Source of the DNA: Candidatus Peribacteria bacterium RIFOXYB1_FULL_54_35 | GTDB taxonomy: Bacteria; Patescibacteriota; Gracilibacteria; Peribacterales; Peribacteraceae | Length of the DNA stretch: 64,000 nt | Assembly: GCA_001787755.1 (NCBI GenBank) | Contig: MFYJ01000007.1 | Location: 146,585-210,584, forward strand | Direction: 5' to 3' | Shown: in pieces, positions 4,075-57,827 of the stretch | Numbering within the stretch: the first letter of the stretch is position 1 | Layout: every line of letters starts with the position of its first letter | Translations under genes and position numbers: made by a program | Notes under the pieces: model-generated | Told to the model about the DNA's origin: nothing | What the model saw: the letters and a program-made list of their open reading frames with translations, nothing else | The model's database searches: none

Positions 4075-5550
4075 ATGAAAGTCATCGTGTACTGCCGCAA
4101 ATCCACAGAACAGGATGATCGCCAGATTCTCTCGATTGATGCGCAGCTTCGTGAGCTGCGCGAATACGCCGCAAAAGAACAGTTGGAAATCGTCGCCTCG
4201 CTCCGCGAGGCCAAAACCGCAAAAGAGCCCGGGCGAACCGAGTTCGCCAGAATGTTGGAAATTGTAGAGAAAGGAGGAGCAGACGGAATTCTCGCATGGC
4301 ATCCCGACAGACTCGCCAGGAACTCTGTAGACGGGGGGAGGATTATTCATCTTCTGGACACCGGCAAGCTCAAAGCGCTGAAGTTTCCCACTTTCTGGTT
4401 TGAGCCGACTCCGCAAGGGAAATTTATGCTCAACATTGCTTTCGGCCAGTCCAAGTACTACGTGGACAACCTTGCCGAGAATGTGAAACGCGGCATGCGC
4501 GAGAAAGTGCGCCGAGGCGAGTGGACGTGGCCTGCACCGCTTGGATACGTCAACAACCGAGAGGAGCGGAACATTGAGCCGGACCCCGAGAAATCGCCAA
4601 TCGTGCGCAAGGCGTTCCAAATGTACGCCACGGGAGCTCATACGCTTCTCTCGCTCCGAAACGAACTCACACTCCTCGGGCTTCGCACGCGCAAAGGCAA
4701 GGTGCTGCCGGTGTCCAATGTCCAGAAGATGCTCAAGCATCATGCGTACTACGGAGTCATCAGCATGAACGGGGAGCTGTTCCCCGGCGCGTTCGAGCCA
4801 ATTGTGAGCAGGAGACTGTTCGACGCAGCGCAGGAAGTCATGCACTTTAAGAGCAAAACCAAGCGCAGGAGAAAGCATGAGCTTCCCTTCACGGGCTTCC
4901 TGCACTGCTCAGCCTGCACCTGCGCGATAACTGCTGAAATCCAGAAAGGTCACCACTATTACCGCTGCACGCACAAGCGCGGTCCCTGCGACCAGCGCAA
5001 ATACCTGCGCGAGGAGGGATTGCTCAAAGAGGTGCGCACCATCGTCGAACGCGTCTCACTGCCCGATGACTGGGTGGACAACATGCTTGCCGAACTCGAC
5101 AAGGAGGAAGCCGAGGGAAAGTCAGATCATCGGACCTCTGTTCAGCGCCTCGAAGATGAGCGGAAGGGCATCGATCAGAAGCTCGATACCCTTCTTGATC
5201 TGCGACTGGAGGGGGCGCTCGATACCGGAGAATACCTTGTGCGAAAGAACGCGCTGGTGTCCTGTAAAGTCGAGATTGGTCAACAGATCAAGGATGCTGA
5301 ACAGAGTTGCTCACATTGGCTCGAACCCATGCGAGAGATGATTGTACGCAGTCGTGAAGCCAAGAAACTGCTCACGACGGAAAACTACTCGGAATTTCCA
5401 ACATTCCTTAAACGCATCGGAACGAACTTTGTTTTGAAAGGGAACGCGGTGCAGTGGGAAGCCGCGATCGGCTGGCGCGTGCTCGCGCATTCGCGCGGAT
5501 TTCGTGATTGGTGGGTCAGGTGGGATTTGAACCCACGGCCAATTGCTTAA
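4075..5550 (+). CDS. large serine recombinase (resolvase/invertase N-domain, recombinase domain, zinc ribbon, coiled coil)
   Basis: N-terminus MKVIVYCRKSTEQDDRQ with catalytic Ser context and HPDRLARN. Cys cluster CSACTCAITAEIQKGHHYYRCTHKRGPC. The ORF runs through the right 79-bp repeat and 42 nt into tRNA-Lys, stopping at a TAA antisense to the anticodon loop. Confidence 0.9.
   Translation: MKVIVYCRKSTEQDDRQILSIDAQLRELREYAAKEQLEIVASLREAKTAKEPGRTEFARMLEIVEKGGADGILAWHPDRLARNSVDGGRIIHLLDTGKLKALKFPTFWFEPTPQGKFMLNIAFGQSKYYVDNLAENVKRGMREKVRRGEWTWPAPLGYVNNREERNIEPDPEKSPIVRKAFQMYATGAHTLLSLRNELTLLGLRTRKGKVLPVSNVQKMLKHHAYYGVISMNGELFPGAFEPIVSRRLFDAAQEVMHFKSKTKRRRKHELPFTGFLHCSACTCAITAEIQKGHHYYRCTHKRGPCDQRKYLREEGLLKEVRTIVERVSLPDDWVDNMLAELDKEEAEGKSDHRTSVQRLEDERKGIDQKLDTLLDLRLEGALDTGEYLVRKNALVSCKVEIGQQIKDAEQSCSHWLEPMREMIVRSREAKKLLTTENYSEFPTFLKRIGTNFVLKGNAVQWEAAIGWRVLAHSRGFRDWWVRWDLNPRPIA
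5436..5514. repeat. right copy of the 79-bp perfect inverted repeat
   Basis: Exact reverse complement of 3959-4037. Its last 6 nt (TGGTGG) encode the CC-A-CCA 3' end of tRNA-Lys. Confidence 0.95.
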
Positions 5551-21820: not shown

Positions 21821-21850
21821 CCCTTCGACTCGTTCCGCTCGCTCAGGGCG
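21821..21850. repeat. REP-like core CCCTTCGACTCG..CGCTCGCTCAGGGC
   Basis: 28 of 30 nt identical to 53592-53621. Related cores occur at 26401-26440, 42049-42085, 23715-23737 and, inverted, at 34102-34122. Confidence 0.8.
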
Positions 21851-25668: not shown

Positions 25669-26313
25669 ATGCTGAAACTTGCAGACGCACTCGGTGAGAT
25701 CGTAGCTGGCAATCCGCTGCTTCAATTCGGGTTGCAACATCGTCTTCTCAATCTCTCGAAAACTGCGTCGTACCTCTGTCCATTGATTGCCGTCAAAACA
25801 AAGAAGGATGTCCAAGAGAGCACGGTACACATGGCACTATCTCGTTTGCAGCGTAGTTCGCGAAAGAAGGGATTACATCGTGAAGAATATGAGTTCAAAC
25901 AAATCACCATGCAGACTGGTCTTTCCACATACACGTTTACGCGTACCGAGGCAGCACATGCCGGGGTACACAAGTTGTACGACGAGGTGCAATGCCGCAA
26001 TGGATACATGACGATCAGCCAGGGAGCGCATCAAATAACCATCATCATTGAATCTGGGTATGCAGCGAGCGTGAAGAAACATGTCACGCAACGTCCGCGT
26101 TTCATCCATGAGAATGTCTCGTCGGTTGGCATCACGTTCGATGAGAAGTATCTGCAAATTCCAGGGCTCATCTACATCGTCATGCAACAATTGATGCTCC
26201 TCAATATCAACATCATTGAAGTGAGTTCCACATGCACAGAGCTTGTTGTATACATTGATGATGCGGATATTCAGTCGGCATTTGAAGCGTTGCACTATTT
26301 GTTTGTGAAATGA
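25669..26313 (+). CDS. ACT-domain protein (aspartokinase regulatory-domain-like)
   Basis: 214 aa from the ATG at 25669. The C-terminal NIIEVSSTCTELVVYIDDADIQSAFEAL resembles ACT domains. Function uncertain. Confidence 0.6.
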   Translation: MLKLADALGEIVAGNPLLQFGLQHRLLNLSKTASYLCPLIAVKTKKDVQESTVHMALSRLQRSSRKKGLHREEYEFKQITMQTGLSTYTFTRTEAAHAGVHKLYDEVQCRNGYMTISQGAHQITIIIESGYAASVKKHVTQRPRFIHENVSSVGITFDEKYLQIPGLIYIVMQQLMLLNINIIEVSSTCTELVVYIDDADIQSAFEALHYLFVK

Positions 26314-26329
26314 GGTGTGAGTCGAGGCG

Positions 26330-26374
26330 CTTCACACCAAAAGCGCGAGTCACGTCGCTCGCGAGCGACGTGAC
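26330..26374 (-). terminator. intrinsic terminator downstream of the tRNA-Val locus
   Basis: Perfect 26-nt palindrome GTCACGTCGCTCGCGAGCGACGTGAC (26349-26374), followed on the minus strand by TCGCGCTTTTGG. Confidence 0.7.
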
Positions 26375-26382
26375 GAGTCGGA

Positions 26383-26402
26383 TGGTGGGTAGCACTGGAT
26401 TC
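26383..26402 (-). repeat. duplicate of the last 20 nt of tRNA-Val (T-loop to CCA)
   Basis: TGGTGGGTAGCACTGGATTC is identical to 26486-26505. It is separated from the intact tRNA by 83 nt. Confidence 0.95.
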
Positions 26403-26485
26403 CCTTCGTCTCATTCGACTGAGGCGAATTCGCTCAGGACAGGCTTCTCATCCAGTTGCAGATACAACTCTTCATATTGTTTGTG

Positions 26486-26562
26486 GTGAGTATTCTGGTG
26501 GGTAGCACTGGATTCGAACCAGTGACCTCCGCGATGTCAACGCGACGCTCTAACCAACTGAG
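26486..26562 (-). tRNA. tRNA-Val (anticodon GAC), CCA encoded
   Basis: GGGTAGC TA GCTC AGTTGGTTA GAGC G TCGCG TTGACAT CGCGG AGGTC ACTGG TTCGAAT CCAGT GCTACCC A CCA. Confidence 0.92.
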
Positions 26563-26704
26563 CTAGCTACCCTTTAGAAGGCTGCTGAAGGGTACCAATT
26601 CTCACGGGGGGCAACAAGGGACGCCTTAATTTCTTTTGTGAAGTTTTCAGCCGCAAATGTCTTGAAAGGCTTCTTCCACAGAGCTTCATCAAGGCGTCCC
26701 GCGC

Positions 26705-42029: not shown

Positions 42030-42048
42030 TGGTCGGGGCGACTGGACT
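42030..42048 (-). repeat. duplicate of the last 19 nt of tRNA-Pro
   Basis: TGGTCGGGGCGACTGGACT is identical to 42149-42167 (21 nt if the preceding AA is counted). Confidence 0.95.
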
Positions 42049-42148
42049 TCCCTCGTCTTGTCCACCTGCGGCGGACTCGCTCGGGATAAACTTCTCGTCC
42101 ATTCGCGTGCAATTACTTCTTTTCCTGAAGTGTTTTCTATGTTTCCAA

Positions 42149-42225: not shown

Positions 42226-42326
42226 AATGACAGAGGGGAGTATAGCCTAGCCAATGCAGATCAGCATGCGGCGAACGAAGTGAGCCGGATGATGACTGCA
42301 TCCCGCACCGACGAGCAAAGCGAGTC

Positions 42327-42352
42327 TGGTGCGGGGCTGAACTACGCCCCGA
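42327..42352 (-). pseudogene. tRNA-Pro-derived acceptor minihelix relic
   Basis: Minus-strand read TCGGGGCGTAGTTCAGCCCCGCACCA. 16 nt are identical to the tRNA-Pro 5' end, fused to a complementary 3' strand and an ACCA-like tail. Confidence 0.7.
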
Positions 42353-53591: not shown

Positions 53592-53621
53592 GCCCTTCGA
53601 CTCGCTTCGCTCGCTCAGGGC
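53592..53621. repeat. REP-like core GCCCTTCGACTCGCTTCGCTCGCTCAGGGC
   Basis: See 21821-21850. 5-bp terminal stem GCCCT/AGGGC. Confidence 0.8.
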
Positions 53622-53642
53622 AGGCATCATGGTACTGTCGTT

Positions 53643-55454
53643 ATGGAAATTAGAAATTTTTGCATCATAGCGCATATCGATCATGGCAAGTCGACGCTGG
53701 CTGACCGCATGATTGAGAGCACAGGGACGCTCCAGAAGCGGGAGATGAAAGAGCAGCTCCTCGATACCATGGATCTGGAGCGCGAGCGTGGCATCACCAT
53801 CAAGTTGCAGCCTGTGCGCATGCAGTACAAGGGTGTGCAGCTCAACCTCATCGACACGCCCGGTCACACGGATTTCCGCTACGAGGTGAGCAGATCGCTC
53901 GCTGCCTGCGAGGGGGCTATTCTCCTTGTGGATGCTTCGCAGGGTATTCAGGCGCAGACGCTCGCTGTGCTCTCCATGGCACTCGAACACGATCTCGCCA
54001 TCGTGCCGGTTCTCAATAAAATCGATCTCCCTGTCGCGGATCCCGAACGTGTCACCGAGGAAGTACTGCATCTCCTCGGGTGCAGGAGGGAGGAAATTCT
54101 GCGGATTTCTGCCAAGGATGGGAGGGGAGTAGAGGATGTGCTCAAGGCAGTCATCGATCGGGTTCCGAAACCTTCTGTCTCCTCTTCTGCCGACGCGCGT
54201 GCTCTCATTTTCGATGCGGTCATGGACCCGTACCGCGGAGCGGTGGCCTATGTGCGCATGGTGGAAGGAAGTCTGAAGAAGGGGCAGAAGGTATTTCTTC
54301 TCGGTACGCAGTACGAGTCGGAGGTGCTTGATATCGGCCACTTCGCTCCGAAGTACGCTTCAGATGCGGGGCTCTTCGCAGGGGAAATTGGCTACGTTGT
54401 TACAGGTGCGAAGGATGTCTTCAATGTGCATACGGGAGATACGATTGCAGGTAAGAAGGATCTCCAGCCTCTCCCGGGATATAAGAAGGTGCAGCCGATG
54501 GTCTTTGCAGGACTGTATCCATCCGAAGCGGACGGATATCCGCAACTCAGAGACGCACTGGAGAAGCTCTCGCTGAACGATGCAGCGCTGTTCATGGAGC
54601 CCGAGCGCAATGCTGCACTCGGCAATGGTTTCCGTTGCGGTTTTCTGGGTCTTCTGCACATGGATATCGTCCAGGAGCGTCTGGAACGGGAACATGATTG
54701 TGATTTGGTGATTACCGCTCCCAGCGTGCAGTACGAGGTACAGCTCCAGTCCAGGAATCCCGGAGAGGTGGTGCGTACGAGTCTGCTCAGGGCAGACGAA
54801 CCCGCGATAGCCCTCATCAGCAATCCTGCGGATTTTCCTGACCCAACGTGTATTGGAGAGGTGCGCGAACCGTGGGTGGGGCTGGAAGTGCTCTGTCGCA
54901 AGGAAGACGTTGGTCCCGTGATGCAGCTTGTGCAGGACCGCCGGGGAATGTACCAGTCTCTGGAGTATCTGGATGCCGATCTTGCACTGCTGCGCTTCGA
55001 GGTTCCGCTCCAGGGTATCATCCTCGATTTCTTCGACAGGCTGAAGTCGGCAACTGCAGGGTACGGTTCCATGAGCTATGAGCCGATCGGGTACCGTGCA
55101 GGGGATCTCGTGAAACTGCAGATTCTCCTTCTCGGAGAGCCTGCGGAGGCTCTGAGCACTATCGTGCACAAATCAGAAGCCCATAGTGTGGGAGCAATTA
55201 TCTGTAAGAAGCTGAAGGAGGTTCTTCCCAAGGCCCAGTATCAGATCCCCATTCAGGCAGCGGTGGGGGCGAAAGTCGTAGCGCGGGAGACCTTGTCTGC
55301 TTACAGGAAAGATGTGACGGGGTATCTGTACGGCGGAGATGTCACCCGGAAGCGCAAGCTCTTGGAGAAGCAGAAGAAGGGGAAGAAGCGCCTCAAGCAG
55401 ATGGGGAAAATCACTCTCACACAGGAGGCGTTCCTGAGTGTCCTGAAGAGATAA
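53643..55454 (+). CDS. lepA: elongation factor 4 (LepA)
   Basis: 603 aa. IRNFCIIAHIDHGKSTLADR, DTPGH, NKID and the LepA C-terminal domain. Confidence 0.96.
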   Translation: MEIRNFCIIAHIDHGKSTLADRMIESTGTLQKREMKEQLLDTMDLERERGITIKLQPVRMQYKGVQLNLIDTPGHTDFRYEVSRSLAACEGAILLVDASQGIQAQTLAVLSMALEHDLAIVPVLNKIDLPVADPERVTEEVLHLLGCRREEILRISAKDGRGVEDVLKAVIDRVPKPSVSSSADARALIFDAVMDPYRGAVAYVRMVEGSLKKGQKVFLLGTQYESEVLDIGHFAPKYASDAGLFAGEIGYVVTGAKDVFNVHTGDTIAGKKDLQPLPGYKKVQPMVFAGLYPSEADGYPQLRDALEKLSLNDAALFMEPERNAALGNGFRCGFLGLLHMDIVQERLEREHDCDLVITAPSVQYEVQLQSRNPGEVVRTSLLRADEPAIALISNPADFPDPTCIGEVREPWVGLEVLCRKEDVGPVMQLVQDRRGMYQSLEYLDADLALLRFEVPLQGIILDFFDRLKSATAGYGSMSYEPIGYRAGDLVKLQILLLGEPAEALSTIVHKSEAHSVGAIICKKLKEVLPKAQYQIPIQAAVGAKVVARETLSAYRKDVTGYLYGGDVTRKRKLLEKQKKGKKRLKQMGKITLTQEAFLSVLKR

Positions 55455-57587: not shown

Positions 57588-57667
57588 AGCCAAAGCATTT
57601 TACGGAACTTTTCCGTTCGTGCAAGAAGTTTCTCCCCCAATACGCGATTCGGGGAATGATGGTTTGT

Positions 57668-57750
57668 CATGAGCGAGCGGCAGCAGAGGGTCTTCGATTC
57701 GCCGCTTCGCGGCTCATTCAGGCTCATTCGGCTCGCTGCCGCGAGTCGAA
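57668..57750 (-). repeat. about 83-nt tRNA-flank element, copy b
   Basis: Lies immediately 3' of tRNA-fMet and 5' of rpmA. About 85% identical to 41946-42029. Contains internal tandem 10-mers (GGCTCATTCA GGCTCATTCG). Confidence 0.9.

Positions 57751-57827
<77 letters not shown>

Follow-up and report, generated by a model that had tools for sequence, protein, structure and literature searches.

The stretch of DNA considered here, referred to as the window, spans 64,000 nucleotides (nt) and corresponds to C7:146585-210584 of a Peribacteria genome from the candidate phyla radiation (CPR). The source genome (denoted G000) is a metagenome-assembled genome (MAG) of 1.56 Mb in 16 contigs, is 98% complete, and contains 45 tRNA genes. 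The subject is the tRNA-Val(GAC) gene of the window, whose 3′ end is present twice, with a non-coding insert between the intact gene and the displaced copy (Table 1). The insert contains a hairpin-repeat core, denoted E and defined in general as CCTTCG, a variable hairpin, and then (T)CGCTCAGGR(Y)AAAC. The variable cargo or spacer between the intact tRNA and E is denoted X.

Table 1. Coordinates of the tRNA-Val(GAC) locus and of other scarred tRNA loci in the window.
Feature	Position	Strand	Basis
Intact tRNA-Val(GAC)	26496..26572	-	ARAGORN; Rfam RF00005, 70 bits
Proximal repeat copy, last 20 nt of tRNA-Val(GAC)	26496-26515	-	pattern search
Insert of 93 nt, non-coding, between the CCA end of tRNA-Val and the displaced copy	26403..26495	-	sequence
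X of the Val insert, directly after the CCA of the intact tRNA (GAATACTCACCACAAACA...GAGAAGCCTGTCC)	26440..26495	-	
Core E of the Val insert: CCTTCGTCTC-hairpin (ATTCG...CGAAT)-TCGCTCAGGA	26403..26439	+	regex, sequence
Displaced copy of tRNA-Val positions 57/58-76 (T-loop to CCA)	26383..26402	-	exact 20/20 match
Old Val trailer: TCCGACTC, perfect 26-nt palindrome (26349-26374), and CTTTTGG	26347..26382	-	inverted repeat, terminator scan
tRNA-Pro(GGG), 3′ side: 100-nt insert (42049-42148) and displaced 19-nt 3′ copy (42030-42048), sister event	42030..42148	-	
tRNA-Pro(GGG), 5′ side: 15-nt copy of positions 1-15 (42337-42351) and 111-nt insert (42226-42336)	42226..42351	-	
Hairpin element of 93 nt from the same family (TTCGACTCG...CTCGCTCATGACAAACCATC) exactly after the CCA of tRNA-Met(CAT) (57751-57827), no duplication	57658..57750	-	

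The tRNA-Val(GAC) locus

The two copies of the tRNA-Val 3′ end are identical at all 20 positions, as the core of an attachment site would be at its two junctions, and the identity of the displaced copy ends at the CCA end. The plus-strand reading of these 20 nt (TGGTGGGTAGCACTGGATTC) occurs exactly twice in the window, and dinucleotide shuffles give an expectation of 0.02 matches when three mismatches are allowed. At the other limit of the displaced fragment, the CCTTCG end of E adjoins it directly. Since the duplication runs from the T-loop to CCA, the intact tRNA has been kept on the promoter side, and the old 3′ end and its trailer have been stranded downstream. The palindrome of that trailer has two arms of 13 nt and, together with CTTTTGG, scores as terminator-like on the tRNA strand. 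Its hairpin is a copy of a hairpin element found after the CCA of other tRNAs, and an identical hairpin also lies behind tRNA-Arg(TCT) at C7:367417-367459.

The insert has a hairpin core, and with it a recognizable element end, on one side only. Both ends of its X are common to the insert at tRNA-Asp, and the start of X is partly similar to the native tRNA-Val trailer of a related genome, G016. Over the first ~53 nt, the Val insert aligns with the insert at tRNA-Pro(GGG) at 38 of 53 positions, with a score of 23 against 4.9 ± 1.9 (maximum 15) in 500 shuffles. Rfam gives no match to the insert (window at the gathering score; 26250-26650 at E ≤ 5), and the tRNA alone is matched. A promoter scan did not find a sigma-70-like promoter upstream of tRNA-Val. 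The insert has no conserved open reading frame (ORF) that could be a recombinase gene: its sole ORF, of 13 amino acids (aa), carries two non-synonymous changes in a close relative (G003, below). Coding capacity was rejected on the grounds that this ORF is conserved neither there nor in the sister inserts. A tRNA-like fold of the insert plus the copy was also rejected, as there is no partner for the T-stem and the trailer palindrome accounts for most of the folding z-score of −2.55.

An earlier note on this DNA, made from the sequence alone, had described most of this architecture. It was right about the 20-nt duplication and about the position of the displaced copy, but it placed the copy within the gene at 26486-26505 and gave the insert as 83 nt, both of which are corrected in Table 1. 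The perfect palindrome with its terminator-like T-run is confirmed by inverted-repeat and terminator scans, and the apparent original terminator that the note saw behind the displaced copy is indeed there, still joined to it. Its similarity of about 39 of 53 positions to the tRNA-Pro insert holds to within one position and lies far above shuffles, and the REP-like core that it recognized in the insert is E.

Copies of tRNA ends across the genome

All 45 tRNAs of G000 were scanned for exact copies of the 5′ end upstream and of the 3′ end downstream, within 500 nt. Copies of the 5′ end are found at 15 tRNAs, are 12-19 nt long, always start from +1, and lie 78-151 nt upstream. Copies of the 3′ end are found at 12 tRNAs, are 13-48 nt long, always end at CCA, and lie 76-425 nt downstream. 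One or both types are present at 22 of the 45 tRNAs, or at 26 if the count extends to copies at distances of 1-2.5 kb or beyond a contig end. The copies are specific to their side of the gene, with wrong-side controls (5′ ends searched downstream, 3′ ends searched upstream) giving 1 and 0. G003 displays the same pattern at 16 of its 32 recovered tRNAs. The tmRNA gene of G000 has no end duplication. A population of hairpin mini-insertions has colonized half of the tRNA genes of this genome, and the Val insert is an ordinary member of it. These further duplications, and the recurrence of the insert family at several tRNAs, are what the earlier note had suggested looking for.

The duplicated segments run from a loop to a terminus. 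They measure 12-24 nt, except for two of 42 and 48 nt, and their outer limit is the mature tRNA terminus in nearly all cases. Inner breakpoints lie in or at the edge of the D-loop for 5′ copies and in the T-loop for 3′ copies (mostly from A58), with Trp and Met broken in the anticodon region. The broken end of most copies adjoins the hairpin element: CTTCG/CGAAG lies within ~12 nt of it in 12-13 of 15 3′ copies and 7-8 of 15 5′ copies, and its orientation relative to the fragment is always the same. Most 3′ copies are directly preceded by ...GNCGAAGG(G), and many 5′ copies are directly followed by the reverse complement, (C)CCTTCGNC....

The two sides of the gene are arranged as mirror images. 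On the 3′ side the order is tRNA, X, a hairpin element ending ...CGAAGG, a copy of positions ~58-76, and the native trailer. On the 5′ side it is native leader, a copy of positions 1 to ~12-19, a CCTTCG-hairpin element, a new leader, and the tRNA. On either side the fragment retains the native flank, and reading 5′ to 3′ into the gene gives the terminal 12-24 nt, a break in the first hairpin loop, and then the CCTTCG end of E. The remaining junctions carry two further 5′-side hairpin families, one of the form CCCAG-hairpin-GTGATAAAAAG... and the other CCCCNNACCA...GGGTGAAAG, with ~120 nt shared between tRNA-Ser(GCT) and tRNA-Ser(CGA).

Homologous inserts occur at different tRNAs. Those at Val, Asp, Pro, Thr, and Glu each have their own cognate copy, as do those at Ser(GCT) and Ser(CGA); the duplicated cores of the Val, Asp, Pro, Thr, and Glu inserts accordingly differ, which is not the pattern of one recombinase with a few attB sites. 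At Glu(CTC), Asp, and Tyr, successive units form arrays in which the more degenerate copies are distal. Copies at Gln, Tyr, and Asn lie 1.1-2.5 kb away with intervening genes, and at tRNA-Thr(GGT) and the tRNA-Asn of G003 part of the leader is duplicated as well. The hairpins are also found without duplications. A sub-family of the form TTCGACTCG-hairpin-CTCGCTCATGGTAAACC lies directly after CCA at eight or more tRNAs and includes the old Val trailer hairpin. In other parts of the genome there are more than 60 dispersed E cores, which have no flanking duplications and in many cases form the loop of a bigger hairpin.

Gain and loss among relatives

The principal comparison is with G003, an independently assembled congener that is ~90-98% identical to G000; nearly all of its sequence (116 contigs) was used, and all tRNA loci of the two were compared. 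At the Val locus, the two genomes are 96% identical over 1,477 nt. The 93-nt insert recurs in G003 with 6 substitutions, next to an identical displaced copy (20/20), and it diverges by 6.4% against 3.9% for its surroundings. An independent assembly with the same structure and point differences shows that the Val structure is not an assembly artefact.

Several other loci are filled in one genome and empty in the other. At tRNA-Pro(TGG), G003 has a 108-nt insert and a 19-nt copy, with the native trailer after the distal copy, and G000 is empty; this insert is homologous to the one at tRNA-Pro(GGG) in the window. At tRNA-Ser(GCT), G000 has a 14-nt 5′ copy and 137 nt, with the native leader on the fragment, and G003 is empty. 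tRNA-Asn and tRNA-Lys(TTT) have 5′-side inserts in G003 only, and the 93-nt hairpin element of tRNA-Met(CAT) in G000 is missing from an otherwise identical locus in G003. At tRNA-Asp, a second, older cassette with a degenerate copy is present in G000, and recombination between copies has removed the two from G003. Another congener, G001, is empty at tRNA-Val(TAC), where G000 is filled. Older copies at Asp, Glu, and Tyr have decayed.

The comFC-tRNA-Val(GAC) locus can be followed across genera by synteny. The 93-nt insert with its 20-nt 3′ copy is present in G000 and G003 and is missing from G001, G021, G006, G014, G015, and G007. G017 has a 12-nt 3′ copy at +138; G001, G018, G024, and G004 have 5′ copies with different element families; and five other genera (G021, G006, G014, G015, and G007) have no copy, so that uninterrupted tRNA-Val loci, which the earlier note had suggested seeking in relatives, exist.

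Filled and empty pairs, together with independent events at the syntenic tRNA-Val, show that the insertions are recent and recurrent and that they regenerate the tRNA, and the scars are gained and lost on short time scales. Because complete inserts of ~64-137 nt are present or absent between close relatives, the minis arrive as minis. Because homologous inserts gain a fragment of the cognate tRNA at each new tRNA, the duplication is made at the target.

Two loci in the congeners have unusual structures. The tRNA-Pro(GGG) insert of G003 (L057, G003 C4, ~5100-5160) has an extra E core nested in its hairpin loop, which shows that hairpin repeats insert into each other's loops. G001 (L014, C36) has a diverged 3′ fragment of tRNA-Val (CACTACTGCCCACCA) at ~+785 downstream of tRNA-Val(GAC), on the far side of a GIY-YIG gene and another ORF. 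The acceptor strand of this fragment is closer to the tRNA-Val allele of G018, from another genus, than to the resident gene, and a TTCGACTCG hairpin element follows it.

Small GIY-YIG genes and other candidate enzymes

The bigger members of the family are those that carry a gene. G000 has 12 small GIY-YIG ORFs of 78-105 aa (Pfam PF01541, E 1e-11 to 1e-19), eight of them ≤450 nt downstream of a same-strand tRNA. The long inserts behind tRNA-His (446 nt) and tRNA-Lys(TTT) (321 nt) each encode one small GIY-YIG protein. Behind the cassettes at His, Pro(CGG), Lys(TTT), and Tyr stands a copy of the 3′ end of the respective tRNA, 17-23 nt in length; for Pro(CGG) and His, inverted E-type hairpins form the cassette boundaries.

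The linkage of these genes to the 3′ flanks of tRNAs extends through the family. All 41 sampled genomes of the family have GIY-YIG copies (1-15 per genome), and among loci from other genera 11 of 29 lie just behind a same-strand tRNA, against ~0.3 by chance. Two genera have a 290-nt GIY-YIG cassette behind tRNA-Phe flanked by 20-nt copies, and G001 has a GIY-YIG gene behind the syntenic tRNA-Val(GAC). The G000 proteins match PDB entries 1zg2 and 1ywl, of UPF0213, and have no NCBIfam match. Proteins of UPF0213 type constitute the ‘standalone Slx1-like’ group, which was treated as repair proteins by Dunin-Horkawicz et al. (PMC1564403).

There is no match to PF00078 for a reverse transcriptase, nor to PF01797 for a Y1 (HUH) transposase of IS200/IS605 type, in the 98%-complete genome. 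It has one tyrosine recombinase (C7:256823), far from the Val locus, and apart from that a serine recombinase at ~4075 of the window. Of the candidate enzymes, only the small GIY-YIG nucleases are therefore abundant.

Spread of the E core beyond Peribacteria

The exact 21-mer CCTTCGACAAGCTCAGGRYRA of the core is present in at least 120 contigs (L170-L289), against a chance expectation of ~2 by our own estimate. Its carriers among the matches listed include Proteobacteria, Chloroflexota, Bacteroidota, Acidobacteriota, Cyanobacteria, CPR, and other groups. It mostly occurs as an inverted pair, forming a palindromic unit of 80-100 nt. Two of 80 analyzed loci, L247 (Altererythrobacter) and L221 (Eremiobacterota), bracket a GIY-YIG gene with inverted CCTTCGACAAGCTCAGG cores. 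At L204, L224, and L282 the core adjoins antisense tRNA fragments.

Other features of the window and genome

tRNA-Pro(GGG) has events on its 3′ and 5′ sides and is thus scarred on both; its 5′ copy lies 126 nt upstream and is joined to a different hairpin family (CCCCGCACCAGACTCGC...). At the element behind tRNA-Met(CAT), 8 nt at the right junction have been remodeled (ATTCCCCG versus ATTACTTC). A second, broken tRNA-Met copy lies behind tRNA-Met(CAT) at C7:115441-115694, 30 kb before the window. It consists of positions 1-19 and 29-76, split by a 59-nt hairpin insert that replaces the D-stem/anticodon-stem segment.

Solo CCTTCG...CTCAGG cores lie on the plus strand of the window at 21822, 23716, and 53594, away from tRNAs and without flanking duplication. 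At least one, at 21822, overlaps the start of an opposite-strand ORF (MSKTGLALSERNESKG...), which may be spurious or may have an N-terminus extended by the element. A conserved motif, (C)ATTCACA or CTTTCACAC, is located 4-8 nt before +1 of many tRNAs in G000 and relatives (C7:138760, C12:211220; L015, L019). It is found in native leaders and insert-supplied leaders alike and may be a promoter or processing signal.

Two observations concern the assembly. tRNA-Ser(TGA) on C4 (end 53620-53786) has its 3′ copy at the end of C7 (399628-399672), beside an E core, from which C4 and C7 are probably adjacent with the assembly broken inside such an element. On C7 at ~42.7 kb, downstream of tRNA-Gly(TCC), a tandemly repeated unit flanks a gap of 18 N.

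Proposed mechanism

The earlier note had read the Val locus as a true insertion bordered by a direct repeat of the tRNA 3′ end, and this reading is supported. Its view of the Val and Pro inserts as homologous, non-autonomous, non-coding miniature elements likewise stands. We interpret the Val insert as such a hairpin mini-element, placed at the T-loop/3′ end of the gene and probably mobilized by nicking with Ssn/Slx1-like GIY-YIG nucleases and by host repair, and we give this interpretation a probability of roughly 0.6. Chenal et al. 2025 (Nat Commun 16:2388, PMC11893778) found that Ssn proteins (~94-aa single-domain GIY-YIG, cd10448) cut single-stranded DNA as site-specific endonucleases. Ssn binds a hairpin repeat (NTS/SRM) as single-stranded DNA in one orientation and cuts a few nt upstream (PMC11893778).

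In the proposed mechanism, GIY-YIG nucleases acting in trans would nick the hairpin end of the element as a single strand, and the same nucleases would nick the hairpin loops of single-stranded tRNA-gene DNA. The duplication would then arise during repair or replication by the host, through fill-in of staggered nicks or template switching. The nucleases would be supplied by the bigger members of the family, in which an 80-100-aa single-domain GIY-YIG gene (UPF0213/Slx1-like type) is carried as cargo. We infer the enzymatic step from the linkage and abundance of these genes, and the attribution to a GIY-YIG enzyme is tentative.

Several points weigh against this interpretation. The Val insert itself encodes no enzyme, and any cutting of tRNA-gene DNA or of the element by GIY-YIG enzymes is putative. 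GIY-YIG nucleases hydrolyze DNA and do not ligate it, which leaves the joining step unexplained. The tRNA-proximal end of the Val insert (GAATAC...) is not conserved across the family, and this, with the partial likeness to the G016 trailer, means that X may not be borne by the element. Duplication length varies from 12 to 24 nt, unlike the target duplications of classical transposases, and the exact match of the copy limits to the mature ends, including CCA, fits no ruler that reads DNA alone and is unexplained. In other phyla, the E core adjoins a tRNA in just 1 of 80 analyzed loci, and within the Peribacteria family a strict CCTTCG-core motif search found the core beside few GIY-YIG genes. 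The published SRM consensus, HGTCWYN(0-2)YYVSBRHN(0-5)WNVSBRGN(0-2)RNCYNB, has 13 matches in the genome against 10 in shuffled genomes, and none in 26300-26620.

A more far-reaching proposal is that the Val insert belongs to a new class of prokaryotic mobile DNA. Its sole enzyme would be a ~80-100-aa Ssn/Slx1-like GIY-YIG single-strand nickase. This nickase would recognize hairpins of two kinds, the CCTTCG end of the element and those that the D-, anticodon-, and T-arms of tRNA genes form as single-stranded DNA. Nicking and repair would duplicate the nicked loop to the exact tRNA terminus, so that the essential gene is always rebuilt. The 21-mer core would be the recognition site of the nuclease, and tRNA genes would be safe-harbor targets in streamlined CPR genomes. 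We regard the proposal as tentative and somewhat doubtful.

Alternative explanations

The same junctions might instead be left by the repair of breaks that hairpins provoke. A break in a tRNA-gene loop would be mended with a sister or foreign copy of that locus as template. Synthesis would proceed past the end of the tRNA and across the adjoining flank until it met a break at a hairpin repeat close by, and the extended end would then be end-joined. X would then be the donor leader or trailer, and the sharp limit of the copy would mark where the conserved tRNA gives way to divergent flanks, so that the exact +1 and CCA limits need no special ruler. The likeness of the start of the Val X to the G016 trailer, new leaders that end in a TTCACA-type motif as native leaders do, and the partial leader duplications at tRNA-Thr(GGT) and the G003 tRNA-Asn are all in keeping with this account. 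So are the remodeling of 8 nt at the tRNA-Met junction, the loss of the distal tRNA-Asp cassette from G003 by recombination between copies, and a possible origin of the G003 tRNA-Pro(TGG) insert in tRNA-Pro(GGG), the 3′ 34 nt being identical. That insert is nevertheless unlike the native trailer of its own gene, and homologous inserts that include X at unrelated tRNAs (both ends for Val and Asp, ~120 nt for the Ser pair) are easier to understand as a mobile unit. A hairpin-specific nuclease would still be needed, and to that extent break repair overlaps with element mobilization by GIY-YIG nicking; as a separate explanation we consider it a serious rival but rather unlikely. Copying of the broken tRNA along its own native trailer was rejected, since X at the tRNA-Pro(TGG) of G003 is unlike that trailer. 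Also rejected were a simple crossover at the TTCGA common to the T-loop and the element, for which the junction ...CGAAGGG|AATCC differs from the prediction, and a rescue-tRNA cassette inserted mid-gene, which misfits one-sided events such as Val, with its native leader and comFC synteny intact. Reverse transcription would suit the exact mature ends and copies of 18-20 nt, and RAYT/IS200-type mobilization was considered too; the genome has neither a reverse transcriptase nor a Y1 transposase.

Other readings of the locus dispense with hairpin nicking altogether. A tRNA 3′ end directly repeated from the T-loop onward is a classical integrase signature, reportedly set out by Williams in 2002, and with copies at Gln, Tyr, and Asn lying 1.1-2.5 kb off behind intervening genes, the scars could be attL/attR remnants of integrase islands or phages shrunk to ~100 bp, or minis mobilized by the serine recombinase at ~4075. 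The earlier note suggested either that recombinase or parallel decay of an island family. Neither suggestion is supported: 22-26 tRNAs are scarred on 5′ and 3′ sides, with unrelated cores and variable duplication lengths, in a genome with one tyrosine recombinase and no match to another integrase family. Complete minis of ~64-137 nt come and go between congeners with clean borders, and a common hairpin repeat in fixed orientation at the junctions is not expected from island decay, leaving integrase remnants improbable. Similarly improbable is selection of the duplicated ends and hairpins as parts of the pre-tRNA (pairing partners, processing or decay signals, or nuclease decoys). The copies do lie inside the probable transcription unit, hairpin elements do follow CCA at many tRNAs, and the displaced Val copy is conserved 20/20 between G000 and G003. 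Set against this are the differences in presence between congeners and genera at the same tRNA, the faster divergence of the Val insert than of its surroundings, the decay of older copies at Asp, Glu, and Tyr, the missing Rfam match, and a fold z-score that is modest. An artefact of MAG assembly could be suspected in a 16-contig assembly with N gaps beside some repeats, such as that downstream of tRNA-Gly(TCC), and with contigs (C4 and C7) that end inside such elements. With the G003 assembly reproducing the Val structure with point differences, a repeat of just 20 nt around an insert of unique sequence, and a pattern that recurs in dozens of genomes, this explanation is barely credible.

Implications

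If mobilization by GIY-YIG nicking and host repair is correct, nearly half of the tRNA genes in a 1.5-Mb genome are repeatedly remodeled by hairpin elements of 60-140 bp that never inactivate their essential target. It would give the newly discovered Ssn-type single-strand GIY-YIG nucleases an in vivo role in DNA mobility, would represent a minimal transposition-like mechanism that has neither transposase nor integrase, and would explain many partial tRNA copies in CPR genomes. The scars break assemblies, create spurious ORFs, and can pass for prophage att sites. A hairpin-guided nickase of single-stranded DNA with a defined target could become a molecular tool.

Comparison with known systems

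The literature searched holds no description of hairpin or GIY-YIG elements that duplicate tRNA ends, and apart from the Ssn/SRM work the population appears undescribed there. Several known systems share some of its properties. Repetitive extragenic palindromic sequences (REPs) and bacterial interspersed mosaic elements (BIMEs) with their REP-associated tyrosine transposases (RAYTs), and miniature inverted-repeat transposable elements (MITEs), are also short, non-coding, multi-copy hairpin repeats that nest in each other's loops. REPs depend for mobilization in trans on a small enzyme that works on hairpins of single-stranded DNA, a role that is putative here. They do not duplicate their target, and the Y1 transposase of RAYTs is absent here. 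The population resembles MITEs in that its inserts of 64-137 nt are short, non-coding, and multi-copy and have larger gene-bearing relatives, the bigger GIY-YIG units with the same end. A MITE is bounded by a pair of inverted ends and duplicates its target over a fixed length, whereas the Val core is one-sided, with no terminal inverted repeats, and the duplications, mostly of 12-24 nt with others of 42 and 48 nt, reach the tRNA terminus.

Integration into tRNA genes by phages, islands, and tycheposons, including tandem accretion, leaves a similar T-loop-to-3′-end repeat with the gene restored on the promoter side, and further units accumulate beside the tRNA in arrays such as those at Glu, Asp, and Tyr. 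Here there is no integrase in or near the inserts, 5′ events are as common as 3′ events, dozens of tRNAs carry homologous inserts, and the unit is as small as 64-137 nt. A parallel in outcome comes from fungal mitochondria, where Paquin, Laforest and Lang reportedly described, at Allomyces atp6, mobile ORFs that carry a replacement gene end, as well as double-hairpin elements. In that system, insertion of a GIY-YIG ORF supplies or duplicates the 3′ end of a gene, strands the old end downstream, and is associated with small hairpins. Its targets are said to be organellar and protein-coding and the new end foreign and divergent, whereas here the copy is identical to the resident tRNA.

Among GIY-YIG enzymes, SegB of phage T4 is a free-standing homing endonuclease whose gene lies in a tRNA gene cluster (PMC2330249). 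It shares with the present system a GIY-YIG gene among or behind tRNA genes that is thought to spread by cutting tRNA-gene DNA. Seg enzymes are larger, have DNA-binding domains, and cut double-stranded DNA, and their co-conversion involves neither flanking duplications nor hairpin ends, whereas the Val insert is gene-less. The Ssn proteins share several features with the proteins described here. The report on them has no mention of tRNA, target duplications, or mini-inserts that rebuild a gene (PMC11893778); the SRM pattern is not enriched in G000 and does not match the Val insert, and the PDB matches here are to UPF0213. Both systems have single-domain GIY-YIG proteins of ~90 aa and many solo repeats, and genes bracketed by hairpins are clear here at tRNA-Pro(CGG) and tRNA-His; ssn genes are often flanked by repeats, in an NTS-ssnA-NTS layout that resembles an insertion sequence (PMC11893778). 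Binding in one orientation with a cut upstream also fits the fixed orientation of the elements described here and the sharp junction on their CCTTCG side.

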